Made by a program: the position numbers and the translations under genes. Shown piece after piece: positions 3,366 to 24,861 of a DNA stretch of 33,190 nt. The stretch spans positions 1-33,190 of the forward strand of contig DAOWHY010000015.1 in assembly GCA_030641185.1 (NCBI GenBank), in the 5' to 3' direction. The notes below the pieces were generated by a model. The model was not told the origin of the DNA. It searched no databases and saw nothing but the letters and a program-made list of their open reading frames with translations. Positions within the stretch are counted from its first letter, which is position 1. Each line of letters begins with the position of its first letter. This DNA comes from Candidatus Moraniibacteriota bacterium. Its GTDB lineage: Bacteria; Patescibacteriota; Minisyncoccia; JAHIHE01; JAGLIN01.

Positions 3366-3393
3366 TTGATTTATTGCCTTAAAAGAGTAAGAT
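3366..3393 (+). promoter_or_regulatory. Promoter candidate TTGATT-16-TAAGAT
   Basis: Shares extended flanks with the promoter candidate at 4993-5021. Confidence 0.45.
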
Positions 3394-3470
3394 AAAAATA
3401 TAAGTTGTAGGGAGAATAAAACGACATTCATAAAAAAATAAAACAAAAAAAGAAGGGGGTGGATAAATTT

Positions 3471-5056: not shown

Positions 5057-5959
5057 ATGCCTGAACTGCCTGAGGTGGAGACAATTAAAAACGATTTAAA
5101 AGAAAAAATTCTTAAGAAAAAAATTAAAAAAGTTGATTTGAGGTTAAAGAAAATTGTAAAAAGTTCCGCGAGAAATTTTGCTTTGGATTTAGAAGGAAAT
5201 AATTTTAAAGATATAAAAAGAAGAGGGAAGCTTTTGGTATTTAGTGTAGAGATGAGACAGCGCTTCGTTCCTACAAATAAATACTTACTTATTCATTTGA
5301 GAATGACCGGGCAATTAATTTATCAAAAGAATAAAAAAATTATCGCGGGCGGACATAGTGATGGCGGTAGAGAAGAGGCAGCGCCTCGTCTCTACAACGA
5401 TTTGCCGAATAAACATACGCATGTTATTTTTTATTTTAGCGATAAGTCCCAATTATTTTTTAATGACCTGCGACGATTTGGCGTGGTAAAAATTGTTAAT
5501 GAAAAAGAATTGGAAGAAATTATAGATGATTTTGGCATAGAACCGCTTGAGAAAAGCTTTTCTTTAAAAGTATTCAAGGATATTATCGGGAATAAAAGCG
5601 GAAACGCCAAAGCATTTTTATTAAATCAAAAATACGTTGCCGGTATTGGCAATATTTACGCTGATGAAATTCTTTTTGAAGCAAAAATTTTGCCAAACAG
5701 AAAAGTTATTTCTTTAAAAATAGAAGAAATTAAAAAATTATATCAGGCAATTAGAAAAATTTTAAAAAAAGCCGTCAAACATCGCGGGACGACTTTTTAT
5801 AGTTACGCCGACGCGCGCGGTCAGAAAGGGAATTTTACCAAATTTTTAAAAGTGTATAAGCGAGAAGGGGAGAGCTGCTTAAGATGTAGAAAAGGTATAA
5901 TTCAAAAAACAAAGATTGCGGGGAGAGGGACGAGGTATTGTGATAAGTGCCAGAAGTGA
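5057..5959 (+). CDS. mutM: Formamidopyrimidine-DNA glycosylase
   Basis: MPELPEVE N-terminus, RRFG, GIGNIYADE (H2TH) and a C-terminal zinc finger CLRC...YCDKCQK. Confidence 0.92.
   Translation: MPELPEVETIKNDLKEKILKKKIKKVDLRLKKIVKSSARNFALDLEGNNFKDIKRRGKLLVFSVEMRQRFVPTNKYLLIHLRMTGQLIYQKNKKIIAGGHSDGGREEAAPRLYNDLPNKHTHVIFYFSDKSQLFFNDLRRFGVVKIVNEKELEEIIDDFGIEPLEKSFSLKVFKDIIGNKSGNAKAFLLNQKYVAGIGNIYADEILFEAKILPNRKVISLKIEEIKKLYQAIRKILKKAVKHRGTTFYSYADARGQKGNFTKFLKVYKREGESCLRCRKGIIQKTKIAGRGTRYCDKCQK
5246..5276. repeat. Intragenic 31-nt element, degenerate copy
   Basis: GTAGAGATGAGACAGCGCTTCGTTCCTACAA is 26/31 identical to 5367-5397. Confidence 0.65.
5367..5397. repeat. Intragenic 31-nt palindromic element
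   Basis: Structure is GTAGAGA-A-GAGGC-AGC-GCCTC-G-TCTCTAC: a 7-bp outer stem plus a 5-bp inner stem. Confidence 0.7.
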
Positions 5960-5978: not shown

Positions 5979-6087
5979 GCGCGTTTGGAGTGTCAAATGT
6001 AGCCGCAGCGGAGTTTGACTTGAAATATCAATTAATTTTCGCTTTCAGGTAGAGCTCCGCTGCGGCTACACTCTACACTCCAAAGCG
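5979..6087. repeat. Long inverted repeat (about 33-bp arms, about 42-nt spacer)
   Basis: CGCGTTTGGAGTGTCAAATGTAGCCGCAGCGGAG pairs with CTCCGCTGCGGCTACACTCTACACTCCAAAGCG. Confidence 0.7.
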
Positions 6088-6126: not shown

Positions 6127-7710
6127 ATGTCAATATTAAACCTCAAAAATCTAAAAAACAAAAACATCCATATCGTTGGAATTGGCGGGGCGGAGGGGAG
6201 CGCTATCGCGGAGTTTTTGGTGGGGAATAATATCTCGTCAATAACCGGGCATGATTTTTCTTTGCGGAAAGATTTTAAGAATGCGTTTTATAAAACACAT
6301 TTAAGTTTGAAATTAGACGAAAGAGAAAAAGCGTTAAATCATCTTTTGAATTTGCCGATTAAAATTAATTTTAAAGATCACTATTTGGAAGGAATTGAAG
6401 AAGCGGATCTCGTTTTTGTTTCGCAAGTTTGGTTTAAATATCCACAGAATATGCCGATATTACAGGACTTAAGAAATAGCGGAACGCCATTTAAGACGAT
6501 TACTAATTTATATTTTGAGTTCGCGCCGTGTAAAATAATTTCCATAACGGGAACAAACGGCAAAACGACGACAGCAAGATTGATAAATAGTATTTTTGAA
6601 AATTGGATTGGCAATGCAAATTCTCCCTTTCGTAAAGGGGGCGGGGGGGATTTCGTCACAATACTAATAAATAAAATATCGCCACGAAAAAAACCAAAGA
6701 TTTATTTTGCGGGAAACGACAGGCAGAATATTCAAGTTTTAGATAAGTTAAATGAAATGTCGGAAAATGATATTTTGATTTTAGAAACAAGCAGCACCCA
6801 GCTTTTATTAAATTCCGGCATTAGTCCGCATATTGGAATTATTACGAATATAACGCCAAATCATCTTGACGATCACGGCAGTTTTGAAAATTATCTTGAA
6901 GCAAAAAAGAATTTAATTAAATATCAAAATAAAGAAGATTTTGCGGTTTTAAATTACGACGATGATGTTGTGAGAAAAATAGCAGAGGAACATAATAAAT
7001 CAAAAGTGTTTTTGTTCAGTAAAAGGACGGTGCAAAATGGCTCCACAGCCCTGCGGGGACTATGGAGCCAACATGATGGATGTTTTATTAGGAATGAAAA
7101 AATAATAATTAAGTTTAATAAAAAAGAGCTTGTTATTTGCGATATTAGCGATATTAAAATTCCAGGAAAGCATAATTTGGAAAATGTTTTGGCGGCGGTT
7201 TCTGCGGCTTATCTTTATGGAGTGGATTTGAAAAGTATAAAAAAGGGTGTAACAGAATATACAGGCATAAAACATCGATTAAAGCTTCTTTATAATATCA
7301 ATGAGATAAAATATTATGACGATACGCAAGCGACAACGCCAGAGGCGACAATCGCGGGAATTGAATCTTTTAATAATGACATAATTTTACTGGCGGGCGG
7401 AGATGACAAGGGAATGAACTATGAAAATTTAGCGAGAAAAATAAATAAAGAAGCGAAACTGCTTGTTTTGTTTCCCGGCAGCGCTTCGGATAAGATCGAG
7501 AAACTAATTGATGAAAGCAAAATTGATTTTATAAAAGTAGAAGACTTTTCCGAAGCGATAAATGTTTTAAAAGATTATTATAAAAAAGCCGCTATATTAA
7601 AAGACACGGCAGTTTTAATTTCTCCAGCGGCGGCGCATTTTTATTCAAAGTTTGTGGAAGGGAGCGGGAAGGATTTAAAAGAGTGGGTTAGATCAGTAGC
7701 CAGTAATTAA
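6127..7710 (+). CDS. murD: Mur ligase, MurD-like (UDP-N-acetylmuramoylalanine--D-glutamate ligase)
   Basis: N-terminal Rossmann segment VGIGGAEGSAIAEFL, P-loop ITGTNGKTTT, and GKHNLENVLAAVSAA. The exact Mur paralogue is uncertain. Confidence 0.7.
   Translation: MSILNLKNLKNKNIHIVGIGGAEGSAIAEFLVGNNISSITGHDFSLRKDFKNAFYKTHLSLKLDEREKALNHLLNLPIKINFKDHYLEGIEEADLVFVSQVWFKYPQNMPILQDLRNSGTPFKTITNLYFEFAPCKIISITGTNGKTTTARLINSIFENWIGNANSPFRKGGGGDFVTILINKISPRKKPKIYFAGNDRQNIQVLDKLNEMSENDILILETSSTQLLLNSGISPHIGIITNITPNHLDDHGSFENYLEAKKNLIKYQNKEDFAVLNYDDDVVRKIAEEHNKSKVFLFSKRTVQNGSTALRGLWSQHDGCFIRNEKIIIKFNKKELVICDISDIKIPGKHNLENVLAAVSAAYLYGVDLKSIKKGVTEYTGIKHRLKLLYNINEIKYYDDTQATTPEATIAGIESFNNDIILLAGGDDKGMNYENLARKINKEAKLLVLFPGSASDKIEKLIDESKIDFIKVEDFSEAINVLKDYYKKAAILKDTAVLISPAAAHFYSKFVEGSGKDLKEWVRSVASN
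6613..6657. repeat. Intragenic G-rich hairpin segment
   Basis: CCCTTT-cgt-AAAGGG hairpin followed by G5-C-G7. It encodes NANSPFRKGGGGDFV. Confidence 0.5.
7039..7069. repeat. Intragenic 31-nt palindrome
   Basis: GGCTCCAcagCCCtgcGGGgactaTGGAGCC. It encodes GSTALRGLWS. Confidence 0.55.
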
Positions 7711-7712
7711 AA

Positions 7713-7852
7713 TGTCATTGCGAGGAGCCTGAGTAAGCGTAGCGAACGAGAAGGCGACGAAGCAATCCCGTGACTATACTCTTTGTGCATAGTCACGGGA
7801 TTACTTCGTCATTCCGTTTCGCTATCGCTCAACTTCATTCCTCGCAATGACA
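7713..7852. repeat. TGTCATTGCGAGG-type nested palindromic element, copy 1
   Basis: Ends are TGTCATTGCGAGGA...TCCTCGCAATGACA. Inner arms are GACGAAGCAATCCCGTGACTAT / ATAGTCACGGGATTACTTCGTC. Confidence 0.85.
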
Positions 7853-7859
7853 GATTAAA

Positions 7860-8012
7860 TTATTTTTCTTCCTCAATCAATTCCACTTCCAACGGTTCAG
7901 AAGAAATAACTTCATGTTCCGCGCCGCAAGCGGGACAGACTAAAACTTCTCCCAAATCAGGCATATCTTCTTCCACGGGAATTGGAGTTTTGCATTCTTG
8001 GCAATTTGGCAT
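7860..8012 (-). CDS. LysW-like zinc-ribbon protein (50 aa)
   Basis: Hand-translated as MPNCQECKTPIPVEEDMPDLGEVLVCPACGAEHEVISSEPLEVELIEEEK. It has two CxxC pairs and an acidic tail. Confidence 0.5.
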   Translation of the reverse strand: MPNCQECKTPIPVEEDMPDLGEVLVCPACGAEHEVISSEPLEVELIEEEK

Positions 8013-8657: not shown

Positions 8658-9839
8658 ATGTCTAAATCCAAAAAATTAAAATTTCCAAAAGACTTCCTCT
8701 GGGGTTCTTCGGTTTCTTCGTATCAGGTGGAAGGCAATGTTAATAATTGCGATTGGTCAGAAAAATTTCCGGCAAGGACAGCTTGCAATTATTATTTAAA
8801 TTATGAGCATTATTTTGATTTGGCAAAAGAGTTAAATCAAAATGTCCATCGCTTTTCACTTTCCTGGTCAAGAATTCAGCCGGCAGAGGGAAAATTTGAC
8901 CGTAAAGCAATTCTTCATTATCGAAAAATGCTTTTGGCGCTGGAAAAGAGAGGGATAAAACCAATGGTGACGATTTGGCACTGGACTCTTCCTTTGTGGA
9001 TGTCAGAAAAAGGAGGATGGGAAAATTCAAAATTTCCGGAATATTTTGAGCAATACACGAGATTTGTAGTTGAGGAACTTGATGATCTCGTTGATTTTTG
9101 GCTGACGACGAATGAACCGATGATCTACACTTCTCTTGCCTATATCCTGGGAAAATTTCCTCCTCAAAAAAATAATCTATTAGTTGTTCCAAAAGTTTTT
9201 TACAACTTTGTGAAAACTCACAAAAAAGCATATCAAGCCATCCATGATATTAGCGAAAACGCAAAAGTCGGTGTCGCGCAAAATCTTTCTTTTGTGGACG
9301 CTTATAATAAAAATTCTACTTTAAATAAAACCGTGGCAAGCGCTTTTAATTTTTTTAGAAATCGTTTGTTTTTAGAATTAACAAAAAACTATCAAGATTT
9401 TTTGGGAATAAATTATTATTTTCATGACAGAATAAAATTCAGTCCTTTTTCTTTTCCTCCCCTAAAGATTAAAAATAAAGATAAAGAAGTTTCAGATCTG
9501 GGATGGGAAATTTATCCCGAAGGGCTTTATTATGTCTTAAAAGATCTTAAAAAATATAATCTGCCAATTTATATTACGGAAAACGGGTTAGCGGACAAAG
9601 GAGATAAAAAAAGAGCAAAGTTTATCACAGAACATCTCAAGCAAATTCATCGGGCTATTGATGATGGAGTGGATGTAAAAGGATATATGCATTGGTCTCT
9701 AATTGATAATTTTGAATGGGCAGACGGTTTTGGACCAAGGTTCGGGCTTGTTGAAATGAACTATAAAACAATGGGGACTAAGGTTAGGGAGAGTGCGAGA
9801 GGGTACGCAGAAGTATGTAAAAATAATAGCTTATTTTAG
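8658..9839 (+). CDS. Glycoside hydrolase family 1 (beta-glucosidase-like)
   Basis: FLWGSSVSSYQVEG, acid/base TNEP, nucleophile ITENG, and a WSLIDNFEW tail. Confidence 0.9.
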   Translation: MSKSKKLKFPKDFLWGSSVSSYQVEGNVNNCDWSEKFPARTACNYYLNYEHYFDLAKELNQNVHRFSLSWSRIQPAEGKFDRKAILHYRKMLLALEKRGIKPMVTIWHWTLPLWMSEKGGWENSKFPEYFEQYTRFVVEELDDLVDFWLTTNEPMIYTSLAYILGKFPPQKNNLLVVPKVFYNFVKTHKKAYQAIHDISENAKVGVAQNLSFVDAYNKNSTLNKTVASAFNFFRNRLFLELTKNYQDFLGINYYFHDRIKFSPFSFPPLKIKNKDKEVSDLGWEIYPEGLYYVLKDLKKYNLPIYITENGLADKGDKKRAKFITEHLKQIHRAIDDGVDVKGYMHWSLIDNFEWADGFGPRFGLVEMNYKTMGTKVRESARGYAEVCKNNSLF

Positions 9840-9840
9840 C

Positions 9841-9979
9841 TGTCATTGCGAGGAGCGAAATTATCCGAAGGATAATTGAGCGACGAAGCAATCCCGTAAT
9901 TAAATTCACTGCGCGTAGCTACGGGATTGCTTCGTCGCCTTCTCACTCACTGCGTTCGTTCAGGCTTCTCGCAATGACA
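9841..9979. repeat. TGTCATTGCGAGG-type nested palindromic element, copy 2
   Basis: Starts 1 nt after the GH1 stop. It has the same ends and the same GAAGCAATCCCG / CGGGATTGCTTCGTCG core. Confidence 0.85.
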
Positions 9980-10007
9980 GTATCGTTAAAATATAAAATG
10001 TTAATTT

Positions 10008-10910: not shown

Positions 10911-10917
10911 AAAAATA

Positions 10918-10941
10918 CAGTAGGAATATTAGATCCTACTG
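10918..10941. terminator. Hairpin between convergent genes
   Basis: CAGTAGGA/TCCTACTG stem. The right arm overlaps the stop of the minus-strand ORF. Confidence 0.45.
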
Positions 10942-11361
10942 CGAAGCTTCTTCTTTTGTTATTTTTGGCCTTACTATTATTTCGAAGGTAAAACCCAGAA
11001 ATATGCCTAATATGACGAATAGCACAACAAGAAAATCTTCTAATGAGCTATATGGCAGTATGCCGTATGCTAATACATTATAGGCATAATTTACCATGCC
11101 AATTGTCATAACCATAACTATAAAAAATCCTTGACTTCTTGGATAGCATAGATGAACGAGTGGTGATTTGTAAAGCAATACTGTTGGAAAAAATCCTATT
11201 CCTGTCCAAATAATTATTACCGCCCAAAAATTAGGAGCGCCAATGGGAGGTAAAATATACCACACATTCAGCATAATCAGAGCAAATATTGCCAATAATA
11301 TTCCCACTAAACCCATTTTAGATCCAAACTTAAAGTCATTTATTATTTGTTCATTATTCAA
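10936..11361 (-). CDS. Integral membrane protein, unknown function
   Basis: ORF track protein with four hydrophobic segments. Confidence 0.6.
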   Translation of the reverse strand: MNNEQIINDFKFGSKMGLVGILLAIFALIMLNVWYILPPIGAPNFWAVIIIWTGIGFFPTVLLYKSPLVHLCYPRSQGFFIVMVMTIGMVNYAYNVLAYGILPYSSLEDFLVVLFVILGIFLGFTFEIIVRPKITKEEASQ

Positions 11362-11416: not shown

Positions 11417-12424
11417 ATGTCAATAATAAAAAACCGCAAAACTTCAAGAAAGAAAATTTTGATAGTTATAATTCTTCTTGCTATGATTGCTTTAATAATT
11501 TATTTTATCTACACTCCAAAAAGAGAAGATGTGAAATATGGCGTAACATTTAGCAAACCCTTTGCCGAACATTTGGGATTAGATTGGCAGGAAACATATT
11601 TAGCTTTATTAGACGACGCTGGCGCGAAGAGAGTGCGCCTGCCGTCATATTGGACAGAAATAGAAACAAAAAGAGGCGAATATTCATTTGAAGATTTAGA
11701 CTGGCAAATTAAAGAGGCGGAAAAACGCGGAGTGAAAATAATTCTTTCCCTGGGGCAAAAACAACCGCGCTGGCCGGAATGCCATATTCCAAATTGGGCA
11801 AAAGAACTTAATGAATATGAACGGCAAGATGAGCTTACTAAAATAATTACAAAAGTTATAGAACGATATAAATATAAAGAAGGCATTATTGCCTGGCAGG
11901 TGGAAAACGAACCCTTTTTGGCCTTCGGAGAATGTCCGGAATTTGACAAAAACTTCCTTGATAGAGAAATTGCCTTGGTCCGTTCTCTTGATAGTCGTCC
12001 TGTTATAATTTCTGACAGCGGCGAGCTTGGCACTTGGTATAGCGCCGCGAAACGAGCGGATATTTTAGGAACCACCTTATATAGAATTGTCTGGAACGAT
12101 CACATTGGCTATGTTCATTATCCGATTGCTTCCGTTGTTTACAGAATAAAAGCGGCAATCATTATGTATATTACCGGCGTGGAAAAAATAATCATCGTAG
12201 AATTACAAGCTGAACCTTGGGGACCGGAAATGATAATTAATACACCGATAGAAGAGCAATACAAATCAATGAGCCCGGAGCAGTTTCGTGAGAACATAGA
12301 ATATGTCAAAAAAATAGAATTTTCAGAAGCTTATTTATGGGGAGGAGAATGGTGGTATTGGTTAAAAACAGTTAAGGGCGATGATCGGATTTGGGAAGAA
12401 GCGAAAGAGGTGTTTGAGAATTAG
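11417..12424 (+). CDS. Membrane-anchored clan GH-A (TIM-barrel) glycoside hydrolase, GH5/GH42-like
   Basis: N-terminal TM anchor, RVRLPSYWTEIE..GEY.F..LDW, and a WQVENEP acid/base motif. Confidence 0.7.
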   Translation: MSIIKNRKTSRKKILIVIILLAMIALIIYFIYTPKREDVKYGVTFSKPFAEHLGLDWQETYLALLDDAGAKRVRLPSYWTEIETKRGEYSFEDLDWQIKEAEKRGVKIILSLGQKQPRWPECHIPNWAKELNEYERQDELTKIITKVIERYKYKEGIIAWQVENEPFLAFGECPEFDKNFLDREIALVRSLDSRPVIISDSGELGTWYSAAKRADILGTTLYRIVWNDHIGYVHYPIASVVYRIKAAIIMYITGVEKIIIVELQAEPWGPEMIINTPIEEQYKSMSPEQFRENIEYVKKIEFSEAYLWGGEWWYWLKTVKGDDRIWEEAKEVFEN

Positions 12425-12439
12425 AAATTAATTTTAACC

Positions 12440-12586
12440 TGTCATTGCGAGGAGCCCAAGTGAGCGTAGCGAACGAGAAGGCGATACCGTACTAAATACG
12501 GCACAAGCTCCGCAATCCCGTGATTAAATTCTTCGCGCATAGTTACGGGATTGCTTCGTCGCTCTGCGGAGCTCCTTGCAATGACA
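12440..12586. repeat. TGTCATTGCGAGG-type nested palindromic element, copy 3
   Basis: Same ends as copies 1 and 2. It carries an extra inner hairpin CCGTActaaaTACGG and AGCTCCGCA/TGCGGAGCT arms. Confidence 0.85.
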
Positions 12587-12594
12587 GATCAAAG

Positions 12595-12623
12595 TTGTCA
12601 TAATTTTTCAAAACTATTATACT
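12595..12623 (+). promoter_or_regulatory. Promoter candidate TTGTCA-17-TATACT
   Basis: The -10 box ends 6 nt before the corA ATG. Confidence 0.5.
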
Positions 12624-18460: not shown

Positions 18461-18662
18461 TGTCATCCTGAACTTGTTTCAGGATCTTCCAATTCTTACG
18501 ATAGTTTATCCTATAAATCATCAAACATTTTGACCGAAGCGAAAACATGATTACAATATAAAACAAAAAGACAGTTGTATCTACACTTTAGATGAAAGAT
18601 AATATTAAATAAGATAAATTAACCTAAAATATAAAAGATTCTGAAACAAGTTCAGAATGACA
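18461..18662. mobile_element. MITE-like element with 26-bp terminal inverted repeats
   Basis: TGTCATCCTGAACTTGTTTCAGGATC pairs with GATTCTGAAACAAGTTCAGAATGACA (24/26). An extra TGTCAT lies at 18442. Confidence 0.6.
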
Positions 18663-18687: not shown

Positions 18688-19113
18688 ATGGCAAAAAAAA
18701 TTGAAAAAATAGTTAAGTTACAAATTCCCGCGGGGAAAGCTAATCCTGCTCCGCCAATTGGGCCAGCTCTGGGACAGGCGGGAATTAATATTCAGGAATT
18801 TTGCACTCGTTTTAATAACGAATCAAAAGATAAAATGGGAGATGTTATTCCTGTGGAGATTTCAGTTTATGAAGATAAGTCTTACAATTTTATAATGAAG
18901 ACCCCTCCCGCCGCGGAATTATTAAAAAAAGCGGCTGGAATTAAAAAGGGTTCTAAAGAACCGCAGAAAGATAAAGTTGGGAAGATTACAAAAAAGCAAT
19001 TACAAGAAATAGCGGAATTAAAAATGCAAGATTTAACCGCGAATGATGTTGAAGGCGCGATGAAGATTATCGCGGGAACGGCGAGACAGATGGGGGTAGA
19101 GATTAAAGAATAA
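18688..19113 (+). CDS. rplK: 50S ribosomal protein L11
   Basis: [22 protein letters not shown] and full-length conservation. Confidence 0.95.
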
Positions 19114-19184
19114 GAATTTATGTTTAATTTATTAATCAATTAATTAAAATCTTTTTAAAAAAGATTTTAGAAAGGGACTAAAAA

Positions 19185-21608
19185 ATGAAAAAAAGTATTT
19201 ATCAAAAAAAGGGAAGTGTGATGTTTATTGCTTTTCTTCTTCTGTTGTCGTTAGTGTCTGGAGTTGAAGAATCTAAAGCCGTTGTTGATCAGAAAGTTTC
19301 TCCTTGCGATTCTTATGGAGATATAAATTTAGATGGCTATGTAACAGCGGCAGACTCGTCTTTGGCTGCTGATAATATTACGGGCAAAGTTTTTTTTGGA
19401 ACTTATGAAATAATTCTTGCTGATGTTAATTTTAATGGTCGTGTTGATATAGGCGATGTAGCCGCAATTGATTCTTTTGTTGCTGGCAGTATAACGACTT
19501 TTCCCGTATGTAGTAAAAGTATAAAAGTTATAAGCCCTAACGGCGGTCAGATCTTTGAAATAGGACAAGAAGTGGAAATTTCATTTACTAATTCATTAAC
19601 TGAAACAACTATTATCGCAATTACTGATAATTTAAAAACTACTTATGCCATAGGTTCAGCTAGCGGTAATTCTAATAATGCCATACAAAAAATGACTTGG
19701 AGCATTCCTTCAAATGTAGTTTTAGGGAATTATAAAATTTTGATAAAAGCGTTGCCTAGTTTTGGACATGTTATGGCTGGTCAGGATTATAGCGACAATT
19801 ATTTTCAAATTATTGGAAATAAAAAACCTCCTTGCGCTTCATATGGAGATTTAGATAATGACGGTTATGTGACAAATTTAGACGAGACTATGGCTGCTGA
19901 CGGTCTTAGCGGCAAGATAATTCTTAGCGAGTCTGAAGAAAGCCGTGCGGATGTCAATTATAATGGTCGTCTTGATATAGGAGATGTTGCGGCAATCGGT
20001 TCTTTTGCTACCTGTAATATTACAACTTTTCCTGTGTGCGCTACAAAATCAGTAAAAGTTATTAGTCCGAATGGCGGAGAGGTTGTTGATAACGAAAAAG
20101 AGATTTTATGGAGCACGAGTAATCTTGGCAGTGGAGTTTGTTCGATTTATTTGTATAATGCGATTGGCACTGAACAGGTAATAAAGACTATAATGCTTAA
20201 TCAACCTTCGTCTTATACCAGATACCAATGGAATTTAACAAGTGATTATACTGATGGAAAATATAAAATTAGCGTACAGTGTAGCGAGCACGGGAATTCC
20301 GCAGTTTATTCGGATAAGTCAGATAATTATTTTAGCATTATTAGGTCTGGTAAAGCTTCTGTGGATTTAATAGTAGAAAGTGTAAGAATTGATGAATATC
20401 ATAATACCATTGCAAAGATTAAAAATGTAGGCACAGTGGTTTATGACGCCTCTCTTTCTTATAATGACATATTTATTAATTGGAAAGATCTGACAAGCGG
20501 AAAAACTGGATCAATAAAGAATTATAGAATAGTAAATATTCCCGCGGGCGGCTCTGAGGAATTTATTATTACGAAAGATATTGTTGCCGAAGGAGAACAC
20601 AATCTTGAAATAACTGTTGATCCTGATAATGTTGTTATAGAATCTAACGAAAATAATAATGTAAGCAATCTTTCTGTTGTAATTTCTAGTAAAAAACTTC
20701 CAGATTTAGTAATAACAGGAATAGAAGTTAAAAAAGTAGTTGACCCGCATTTAGGCGAGGGTATTGATATCATTGCGCAAGTTAAAAATATAGGTGAAGG
20801 TTATTATATTTACGGTGATTCTAGGGTAGAAAAGTTTATAAGTTGGAGCGATTCAATTAGCGGCAAATCTGGCAGTATAGGAAATTATAAATTAATATCT
20901 ATTTTACCGGGAGAAACAAAAGAATATTCAATATATAGAACGGGGTTAGATCTTGAGTTTTATAATATTAGAATTATCGTAGATCCTGAAAATATTATTG
21001 AAGAATCTAATAATCAAAATAATACTTTCATTAAAAATAGCGCTATAAATAGTTGTCTAATAGATGGAACTCTAGTTAAGCTCCCTAATGATCCTAAAAT
21101 ATATGTAATAATAAATTGCAAGAGATATTGGGTTAAGACCGCGAAAGAATTTCAAAGAAGAGGATATAAATGGGAAAACATTAAAATTACAACTGATGAT
21201 GAATTAAACGCATTGCCAGAAGATTCTGGAAATGCTCAAGATATAAAAGAAGGAGCTATAATTAGAGCCAATGGCGATGTTGATATTTATATTGTAAAGT
21301 ATATAGGCAATAAAAAATTCAAAAGGCTTATTTTAAACCCTTCCGTATTCAGAAGTTATGGGCATCTAAGGTGGGAGGATGTCATAGGGGTAGAAAAAGA
21401 AACTGTAAATTCTTTTACGACTTCAAATTTAGTTCGCAACGCAAGAACCGGAAGAATATACAGATTAACCGCTAACGGAGATAACGGAATAAGAAGGCAC
21501 TTCAGAAGCATTAGCGTAATGCAAAGGCTAGGACACGATCTTGACGCTGTGTATGAAATAAATGAGACTGACGAGAGATCTTACGAACAAGGTGAGGATT
21601 TTAAATAG
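19185..21608 (+). CDS. Secreted multidomain surface protein
   Basis: Signal peptide, two DxNxDGxV...DVNxNGRxDIGD dockerin-like modules each followed by an Ig-like module (VKVISPNGG), two CARDB-like modules (NVG/NIG...VDP(D/E)N...ESNxxNN), and a C-terminal repeat domain. Confidence 0.85.
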   Translation: MKKSIYQKKGSVMFIAFLLLLSLVSGVEESKAVVDQKVSPCDSYGDINLDGYVTAADSSLAADNITGKVFFGTYEIILADVNFNGRVDIGDVAAIDSFVAGSITTFPVCSKSIKVISPNGGQIFEIGQEVEISFTNSLTETTIIAITDNLKTTYAIGSASGNSNNAIQKMTWSIPSNVVLGNYKILIKALPSFGHVMAGQDYSDNYFQIIGNKKPPCASYGDLDNDGYVTNLDETMAADGLSGKIILSESEESRADVNYNGRLDIGDVAAIGSFATCNITTFPVCATKSVKVISPNGGEVVDNEKEILWSTSNLGSGVCSIYLYNAIGTEQVIKTIMLNQPSSYTRYQWNLTSDYTDGKYKISVQCSEHGNSAVYSDKSDNYFSIIRSGKASVDLIVESVRIDEYHNTIAKIKNVGTVVYDASLSYNDIFINWKDLTSGKTGSIKNYRIVNIPAGGSEEFIITKDIVAEGEHNLEITVDPDNVVIESNENNNVSNLSVVISSKKLPDLVITGIEVKKVVDPHLGEGIDIIAQVKNIGEGYYIYGDSRVEKFISWSDSISGKSGSIGNYKLISILPGETKEYSIYRTGLDLEFYNIRIIVDPENIIEESNNQNNTFIKNSAINSCLIDGTLVKLPNDPKIYVIINCKRYWVKTAKEFQRRGYKWENIKITTDDELNALPEDSGNAQDIKEGAIIRANGDVDIYIVKYIGNKKFKRLILNPSVFRSYGHLRWEDVIGVEKETVNSFTTSNLVRNARTGRIYRLTANGDNGIRRHFRSISVMQRLGHDLDAVYEINETDERSYEQGEDFK

Positions 21609-21678
21609 TGACATTAAAGGCGCGATGAAAATTATCGCCGGGACCGCGAGGCAGATGGGAATAGAGGTGAAGGGATAG
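21607..21678 (+). pseudogene. Orphan duplicate of the rplK 3' end (last 23 codons plus stop)
   Basis: Encodes [23 protein letters not shown], against [23 protein letters not shown] at 19042-19113. Identity is 56/72 nt by hand alignment. Confidence 0.8.
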
Positions 21679-21723
21679 AAATCGCATGTTTAAAATTTAT
21701 TTAATAACCAACTAACAAAAAAT

Positions 21724-24740: not shown

Positions 24741-24845
24741 TGTCATTGCGAGAGAGCCGCAGCGACCGAAGCAATCCCGCAACTATGCACAAGGAGTTTA
24801 ATTTCGGGATTGCTTCGTCGCCCTTCGGGGCTCCTCGCAATGACA
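24741..24845. repeat. TGTCATTGCGAG-type nested palindromic element, copy 4 (short)
   Basis: TGTCATTGCGAGAG...CCGAAGCAATCCCG...CGGGATTGCTTCGTCG...CTCGCAATGACA. Confidence 0.85.
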
Positions 24846-24861
24846 GTGAAGTTCACAACTT

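Follow-up and report, generated by a model that had tools for sequence, protein, structure and literature searches.

Two segments of a mutM gene from a Candidatus Moraniibacteriota bacterium are very probably copies of a mobile, RAYT-associated 29-nt palindromic element

The DNA under study, hereafter the window, is the whole stretch of 33,190 nt analysed from contig DAOWHY010000015.1 of a Candidatus Moraniibacteriota bacterium, and it is AT-rich, with 33% GC across its length. It carries an fpg/mutM gene (Table 1) whose 300-residue product has the N-terminal PELPEVE, the H2TH and the C-terminal zinc finger of MutM. Pfam searches returned PF01149 (1.3e-30), PF06831 (3.5e-24) and PF06827 (zf-FPG, 1.3e-4), comparison with the MutM of PDB entry 1L1T gave an E value of 1.8e-46, and the AlphaFold2 (AF2) model of the protein reached a pLDDT of 87 and a pTM of 0.85. 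Within this gene lie two short stretches that resemble each other, and it is most likely that the MutM of the window is still functional and that the decapeptides encoded by these stretches are neutral passengers.

Table 1. Coordinates of the features discussed, in the window unless a relative is named
Feature	Position	Strand	Remarks
fpg/mutM (formamidopyrimidine-DNA glycosylase)	5057-5959	+	intact 300-aa ORF
Copy 1 (site 1), decayed; very probable 29-nt double-foot REP, GTAGAGATGAGACAGCGCTTCGTTCCTAC	5246-5274	.	VEMRQRFVPT, residues 64-73, element frame 0
Copy 2 (site 2), near-intact; very probable 29-nt double-foot REP, GTAGAGAAGAGGCAGCGCCTCGTCTCTAC	5367-5395	.	(G)REEAAPRLY, residues 104-113, element frame +1
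REPIN-like inverted pair, GTAGCCGCAGCGGAG - 41 nt - CTCCGCTGCGGCTAC	5999-6069	.	15-bp perfect arms, GTAG/CTAC feet
RAYT-like gene of relative L002	9085-9690		0.3-3.5 kb upstream of mutM (range for both relatives)
RAYT-like gene of relative L004	6062-6487		0.3-3.5 kb upstream of mutM (range for both relatives)

The preliminary description of this locus had presented the two stretches as copies of a 31-nt palindromic element read in different frames. Indeed, both 31-mers lie where it placed them within the mutM ORF, they agree at 26 of 31 positions, and the frames in which they are translated differ as claimed. This match is the top 31-mer pair in the gene and is equalled in none of 1000 codon-shuffled genes (maximum 25); no other comparable 31-mer pair within 400 nt of each other was found across the window, and the search pattern GTAGAGNNGAGNCAGCGC has two matches there, both being the mutM copies, against an expectation of 0.12. 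The repeat thus stands, and its length has to be revised: the unit comprises 29 nt, from GTAG to CTAC, and the trailing AA shared by the two copies belongs to the flank, since relatives show other bases at this place. The palindromic character likewise holds for one copy only. Copy 2 forms the hairpin, with a DNA fold of -11.2 kcal/mol (z -6.3), and differs by two arm changes from the consensus, which itself folds at -14.0 kcal/mol (z -8.5). Copy 1 has decayed and no longer folds, its -0.6 kcal/mol (z +0.76) being no better than that of a shuffled sequence. As to the GC richness that had been noted for both, it is evident for copy 2 (0.44-0.45, compared with 0.22-0.33 in most of the gene) and modest for copy 1, whose surroundings have 0.30-0.33 GC per 100-nt window, the 31-mer itself reaching 48%. 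The window therefore holds a nearly intact copy 2 and, in copy 1, a decayed relic; a third copy of the 29-mer is absent from the 33 kb. In the cold-seep metagenomes from which the assembly originates, contig depth peaks over copy 2, and the variants that dominate there (5374 A>C and 5382 C>T) turn this copy back to the consensus; the canonical element is therefore abundant in the cold-seep community. At the level of assembled contigs of the source samples, none skips either element.

The consensus unit is GTAGAGACGAGGCA-N-TGCCTCGTCTCTAC, with 14-bp arms arranged as a 5' GTAG, a 10-bp GC-rich stem, a loop of 1-3 nt and a 3' CTAC. On either strand, one of the three element frames contains a TAG stop codon and the other two read VETRxCLVST and RDEAxPRLY, these two stop-free frames being precisely those used in mutM. 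A search for further copies, proposed together with the original observation, gave none elsewhere in the window, one in the relative L002 and at least 119 loci in public genomes, scanned at one genome per species, with 123 copies among the matches listed. The copy of L002 (4262-4290) lies in an unrelated restriction-modification (MmeI-like) gene, where it is read ASVCD-VETRQCLVST-DDITT. Among the matches listed, carriers belong to many Patescibacteria classes, Omnitrophota, WOR-3, Calditrichaceae, Bacteroidales and gammaproteobacterial MAGs, and several MAGs (for example DAOWDU01, JAHJJO01, JAGLZA01, LBXA01) have at least three to five copies each. Nearly all of the 123 listed copies match the 29-mer perfectly, the central base being free, and all have sharp GTAG/CTAC borders between unrelated flanks, with a symmetric preference for Y at position -1 and R at +1. 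Long ORFs contain 56 of these copies (46%), compared with 92 of 123 for random positions, and the in-ORF copies split 27:29 over the two stop-free frames and never use the third. The genes that host them are genuine and often essential, and include those for LigA, LepA, PheT (two copies), IleRS, ComEC (two genes), MetH, radical-SAM enzymes, glycosyltransferases and O-antigen ligases.

Several other interpretations of these dispersed copies were considered and rejected. A repeat at the protein level does not account for them, given that the frames differ and identical DNA lies in unrelated genes; the similarity is thus one of DNA, as had been proposed from the two frames in mutM. Target-site duplication is not apparent, as 98 of the 123 listed copies lack direct repeats in their flanks and the remainder have repeats of 1-3 nt, which corresponds to chance expectation. 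Phage carriage was set aside, the 29-mer being present in 0 viral contigs, and so was a CRISPR-like array, the copies being solitary or lying 350-1300 nt apart with unrelated spacing. An explanation by chance similarity, by local duplication within mutM or by an assembly artefact, which could appeal to the presence of just two copies in the window, one of them unfolded, has next to no likelihood in our estimate: the codon shuffles above speak against chance, the same sequence occurs in independent ENA, JGI, NCBI and Logan assemblies as well as in the genome loci mentioned, and a simple duplication would not be expected to leave copies in different frames, at separate places with unrelated flanks, nor copies in unrelated genes.

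The two segments had also been proposed to be lineage-specific insertions into MutM, and on this point the alignment, the further copies and the location in loops are all in favour. In the alignment, the Geobacillus MutM is gapped by 8 residues exactly at MRQRFVPT and has about 21 fewer residues around copy 2, the HMMER alignment to this protein being broken across residues 86-117. Relatives whose MutM is 72-87% identical differ in having both segments, a single one or none, and where a site is empty its loop codons are AT-rich, from which it follows that both copies are lineage-specific insertions. In fact, the homologues fall into length classes of 300, 294, 291 and 287 aa whose differences map to sites 1 and 2, and the clade baseline reads F-DLSQKN-KYL at site 1 and GGHSD-NNN-IINLPNKH at site 2; site 1 is empty (GAT TTG TCC CAA AAA) in L006, L008, L153 and L010. 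The extra residues previously assigned to site 2 do include the element, whereas IIAGGHSD is conserved across the clade and does not derive from it. Clearly, the copies are derived insertions, present or absent among close relatives, of a 29-mer that is elsewhere dispersed with unrelated flanks. The AF2 model places both in loops between beta-strands, as the structural check that had been suggested was meant to establish: the site 1 loop joins strands 59-65 and 75-80, and site 2 is a surface loop comprising the sole segment with pLDDT <50 (residues 101-111).

The net change in length amounts to +18 nt at site 1 and +9 to +21 nt at site 2, and in other hosts to +8 aa (LepA) and about +1 aa (LigA). 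Since 29 nt is not a multiple of three, an in-gene copy must have required an accompanying deletion or compensating indel; a clean filled/empty junction was not recovered for the mutM sites, LepA or LigA. Unrelated insertions are found in the same two loops of more distant Fpg proteins (P0040/P0044, P0083, P0084, P0105). Given this, and given that filled and empty states are not monophyletic (see below), these two N-terminal beta-sandwich loops are insertion-tolerant hot spots with repeated gain, replacement, loss or allele exchange. Of the distant inserts, that of L011 (4606-5601) and L012, which encode the 331-aa proteins P0044 and P0040, is a different GC-rich palindrome of about 90 nt at mutM site 1; it codes for 44 aa and is bordered by a duplicated LSQKNKY (about 21 nt), which points to another mode of insertion, one in which a long target is duplicated. 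In P0105 a GC-rich insert of 44 aa occupies site 2. The neighbouring Mur-ligase ORF (6127-7710) contains another in-gene hot spot, a variable loop at about 6625-6650 in which short GC-rich palindromes vary by relative: the loop contains CCCTTTCGTAAAGGGGG (SPFRKGG) in the window, CCCTCTCCCGCGGGGAGAGGG (NPLPRGEG) in L006 (4617-4637) and GVHSSECR in L002.

We have compared the mutM orthologues as codon-threaded DNA, eleven of them with site 2 filled; a metagenome scan for such orthologues gave one close relative, L132, and the others were fetched singly. Six orthologues (L002, L004, L006, L083, L149, L150) carry the perfect consensus at site 2, keeping all 28 arm bases at a third-codon-position identity to the window of 0.64-0.86; at the same site L151 has two compensated pairs, L132 a different GTAG hairpin and L153 a decayed copy. 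Site 1 is a perfect canonical 29-mer in L150 and a compensated palindrome in L083 and L004. Over the gene as a whole L083 and the window are 90% identical, yet 12 of the 29 element positions at site 1 differ, and an almost perfect palindrome results. In a set of 13 distinct copies pairing extends to 94.7% of cells, compared with 33-48% when partners are slid, and 6/13 pairs are altered on both sides; at most one of 500 shuffles (0-1) reaches the values of pairing or covariation. Orthologous intragenic copies thus retain the stem via compensatory changes. In a neighbour-joining (NJ) tree of mutM from which the element columns were left out, the filled taxa are monophyletic in 0 of 200 bootstraps. 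A history of single gain is rejected by this tree, although recombination could also be the source of the non-monophyly, and the distribution of filled and empty states therefore requires repeated gain, loss or recombination.

Stem retention of this kind might result from selection on the hairpins as a cis-regulatory feature of mRNA or DNA, be it a translation pause, a signal for mRNA stability or processing, or a protein-binding site. Both the perfect arms of the six orthologues at that level of third-position identity and the compensatory pairs are in line with it, as are several G-T (G-U) pairs on the sense strand and the argument of Di Nocera et al. that many REPs act as RNA (PMC3733652). 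We consider this explanation unlikely, however, since the same 29-mer lies in dozens of unrelated genes and at intergenic sites, in either orientation-equivalent frame, and is absent or decayed in close relatives with an intact mutM (L008, L153) and at copy 1 of the window; moreover, the different REP families found at the same site (L132, L083) are better explained by replacement or conversion, and an Rfam search of the whole window matched 0 families. Selection might instead act on the peptide itself, the RDEALPRLY or VETRxCLVST module conferring a new property or interaction on the proteins that carry it, MutM included. The retention of in-frame insertions among relatives at 72-87% protein identity agrees with this, and so does the occurrence of such a peptide at one loop in nearly all RAYTs of the clade (118 of 120, see below). 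It is nevertheless highly improbable, as a single DNA sequence gives two unrelated peptides according to frame, conservation is at the nucleotide level with synonymous sites included, and the peptide varies freely as the arms co-vary (GVGTGHCPVPT versus SVETRQCLVPT). In addition, site 2 is modelled as disordered, with its pLDDT below 50, and copy 1 of the window has drifted with no sign of constraint.

A distinct line of evidence links the 29-mer to a transposase. Y1_Tnp genes are located near mutM in the relatives L002 and L004, and a tblastn search with these against all collected loci detected homologues in 16 element-bearing loci. Among the loci listed, the 29-mer lies within or beside a Y1 transposase gene in about 13, and it is inside the putative RAYT ORF in 12 of the loci (L052, L064, L123, L040, L036, L070, L109, L089, L018, L131, L119, L049). 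Its position there is fixed, just after the HUH motif (PNHxHGI), and it is always read RDEA(L/M)PRLY; in L109 and L131 it also flanks the RAYT gene. A peptide of the GTAG-hairpin type occupies this post-HUH loop in 118 of 120 RAYT homologues, sister-family peptides including VETQNFASLQ, RDALQCVST, VGTGQCPVPT and RNEALPRSY. The best NCBIfam model is REP_Tyr_transpos, with an E value of 1.5e-18 and 67 bits, which is below the 80-bit equivalog cut-off, compared with 20 bits for the IS200 model. In the PDB the only match of these proteins is the E. coli TnpA-REP 4ER8, which is weak (E 0.11), and the JGI annotation of homologues is RayT. These results show that the 29-mer is strongly associated with putative genes of REP-associated tyrosine transposases (RAYT / TnpA-REP). 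That a RAYT mobilises the element may be inferred from this association together with published biochemistry on other REPs. The RAYT-like genes next to mutM in L002 and L004 find no support as source of the mobilising enzyme, as they are flanked by other hairpins, and not by the 29-mer, and that of L002 is also interrupted by such hairpins (TAGGGACAGACC..., GGGCAGACACATAGGTCTGCCC). The window has no RAYT-like gene at the corresponding place upstream of mutM, and a RAYT or Y1 transposase gene is absent from its whole 33 kb.

The arrangement in L109 deserves separate mention: the copies at 21-49, 385-413 and 774-802 lie within and on both sides of the RAYT ORF (120-662), which is REPtron-like. 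Partial element heads abut full copies in this locus and in L070 (about 3380-3424), which suggests nested or aborted insertions. The defence-type cluster upstream of mutM in L002 (1-8356) encodes an SNF2/PLD helicase, RhuM, an MmeI-like methyltransferase/restriction enzyme and an AAA_15 ATPase; the L002 copy of the 29-mer mentioned above lies in the gene of this MmeI-like enzyme.

Other repeats were noticed in and around the window. The REPIN-like pair of Table 1 lies 40 nt beyond the stop codon of mutM, within a larger inverted repeat (5984-6084), and is multi-copy in the source metagenomes, with a depth of 285-342 compared with about 10 (approximately 30-fold) and 8-11 matching contigs; it looks like an inverted REP pair of a family different from the 29-mer. 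A GC-rich palindromic MITE-like family of about 130-165 nt has four intergenic copies (7704-7870, 9812-9990, 12423-12600, 24763-24846), with ends CTGTCATTGCGAGGAGC and core GCGACGAAGCAATCCCG...CGGGATTGCTTCGTCGC, and is also present in relatives, among them L004 and L002, in the latter just downstream of mutM (10915-11040). At 18461-18662 there is an inverted repeat (TGTCATCCTGAACTTGTTTCAGGATC...) with 54-nt arms, 80% complementary and separated by 94 nt. A 211-nt direct repeat with 72% identity (19300-19510 and 19828-20038) lies within an 807-aa ORF (19185-21608), and two neighbouring ORFs share at their 3' ends a 74-nt repeat with 78% identity (19044-19117 and 21609-21682); the 211-nt and 74-nt repeats are probably protein-level repeats or paralogous C-termini.

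Taken together, both segments are, very probably, copies of a mobile 29-nt double-foot GTAG REP, associated with RAYT, that landed in mutM. According to the mechanism we propose, the RAYT, an HUH/Y1 enzyme, would recognise the GTAG foot and hairpin, cleave, and transfer the strand, so that the element would be copied as single-stranded DNA, and, owing to the double foot, either strand would serve as substrate. Survival of the copies in mutM is explained by the tolerance of the loops, the stop-free frames and a net change in length that is a multiple of three. Selection on the hairpin, or re-templating or conversion with other copies as the source, might then maintain or restore the perfect in-gene copies, which would otherwise be expected to decay. 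A bolder proposition, rather unlikely in our view, is that the intragenic copies are actively renewed or swapped at the hot-spot loops by RAYT re-templating, and that the presence of one 29-mer common to several phyla marks recent exchange between them. If so, renewal by RAYT would explain at once the perfect arms, the compensated variants and the occurrence of distinct REP families at one codon position in sister lineages, and the exchange network would span Patescibacteria, Omnitrophota, WOR-3, Calditrichota and others; its vehicle would be a transposase gene whose reading frame contains the enzyme's own substrate.

The reading of both segments as copies of a mobile REP explains two odd, GC-rich and frame-discordant stretches in a housekeeping repair gene and provides a signature for the annotation of candidate-phyla-radiation (CPR) genomes: 29-mers of the form GTAG...CTAC, read VETRxCLVST or RDEAxPRLY, are passengers of a mobile element, not protein motifs or assembly errors. 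With it, the range of RAYT subclass 2.4 and of the double-foot REPs would come to include Patescibacteria and neighbouring uncultured phyla, with an unusually high intragenic share in which essential genes are included. The orthologous mutM series, with its clear stem covariation, constitutes comparative material on how REPs are copied, maintained and lost. No new kind of system is revealed, and the main value lies in CPR annotation and in the comparison of REP maintenance.

The closest relation is to the double-foot REPs, which go with TnpA-REP subclass 2.4, equivalent to RAYT group 4, and which are defined by a 5' GT[AG]G foot and a 3' C[TC]AC foot with a long stable stem-loop between them; the tnpA-REP genes of this subclass contain in-frame REPs (Quentin, Siguier, Chandler & Fichant 2018, BMC Genomics 19:475, PMC6006769). 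In the present case GTAG...CTAC is found in both window copies and in all 123 listed ones, the long stable stem is present in the consensus and in copy 2 and lost in copy 1, and the 29-mer is located inside and flanking RAYT ORFs, in related loci and not in the window. The taxonomic distribution is also patchy and HGT-like. Differences are the identity of a single 29-mer across phyla, the 46% of sampled copies that are intragenic, with two in one mutM, and the carriers, which are mainly Patescibacteria, Omnitrophota and WOR-3, whereas subclass 2.4 was reported as abundant in Cyanobacteria and Bacteroidetes. The word 'Parcubacteria' is absent from the text of PMC6006769. In respect to activity, TnpA-REP needs the GTAG motif and the hairpin in order to cleave single-stranded REPs (Corneloup et al. 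2021, PMC8266576).

REPs wholly inside ORFs are not without precedent. Those tagged by GTAG or CGTC encode extra residues in genes for known proteins, sometimes two per gene, and many of the hosts are replication and repair genes such as uvrA/B/D, polA, recBCD and ligase (Di Nocera, De Gregorio & Rocco 2013, BMC Genomics 14:522, PMC3733652). Likewise, the repair-gene hosts found here include mutM and ligA. In that set, however, GTAG stays unpaired and marks one end of a stem-loop of 20-40 bp, stems are 5-13 bp long, and intragenic copies are a minority; in the 29-mer GTAG is paired with the 3' CTAC, both ends being involved in a 14-bp perfect palindrome, and nearly half of the copies are intragenic. 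Because GTAG is paired and present at both ends, the 29-mer fits the double-foot class and not the GTAG-tagged one. The terms mutM, Patescibacteria, GTAGAG and GAGACG are absent from the text of PMC3733652, PMC6006769 and PMC8266576 were likewise found to be silent on Patescibacteria, mutM and the 29-mer, and for the literal 29-mer sequence no match was found in the literature. There is also a clear likeness to the elements of Rickettsia in that in-frame palindromes lie in many still-functional genes of a small AT-rich genome and add surface peptides. These Rickettsia palindromic elements (RPE) were reportedly described by Ogata et al. in 2000, and we know of no transposase dedicated to them. 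The 29-mer departs from RPE in being 29 nt long, GTAG-footed, RAYT-associated and unrelated in sequence; short RPE families are CGTC-tagged and RPE-1 is a longer palindromic insertion (PMC3733652).

Finally, in REPIN-RAYT systems non-autonomous hairpin repeats are linked to a Y1 transposase that is usually single-copy, and their populations centre on a master sequence (Bertels & Rainey 2011; PMC3116915). REPINs are formed by two inverted REPs and a spacer, are extragenic and are mostly inherited vertically, whereas the 29-mer has a loop of 1-3 nt in place of a spacer, is often intragenic and shows a distribution that looks horizontal. The element thus belongs to a kind already described in other bacteria and, apparently, first noted here in CPR bacteria.
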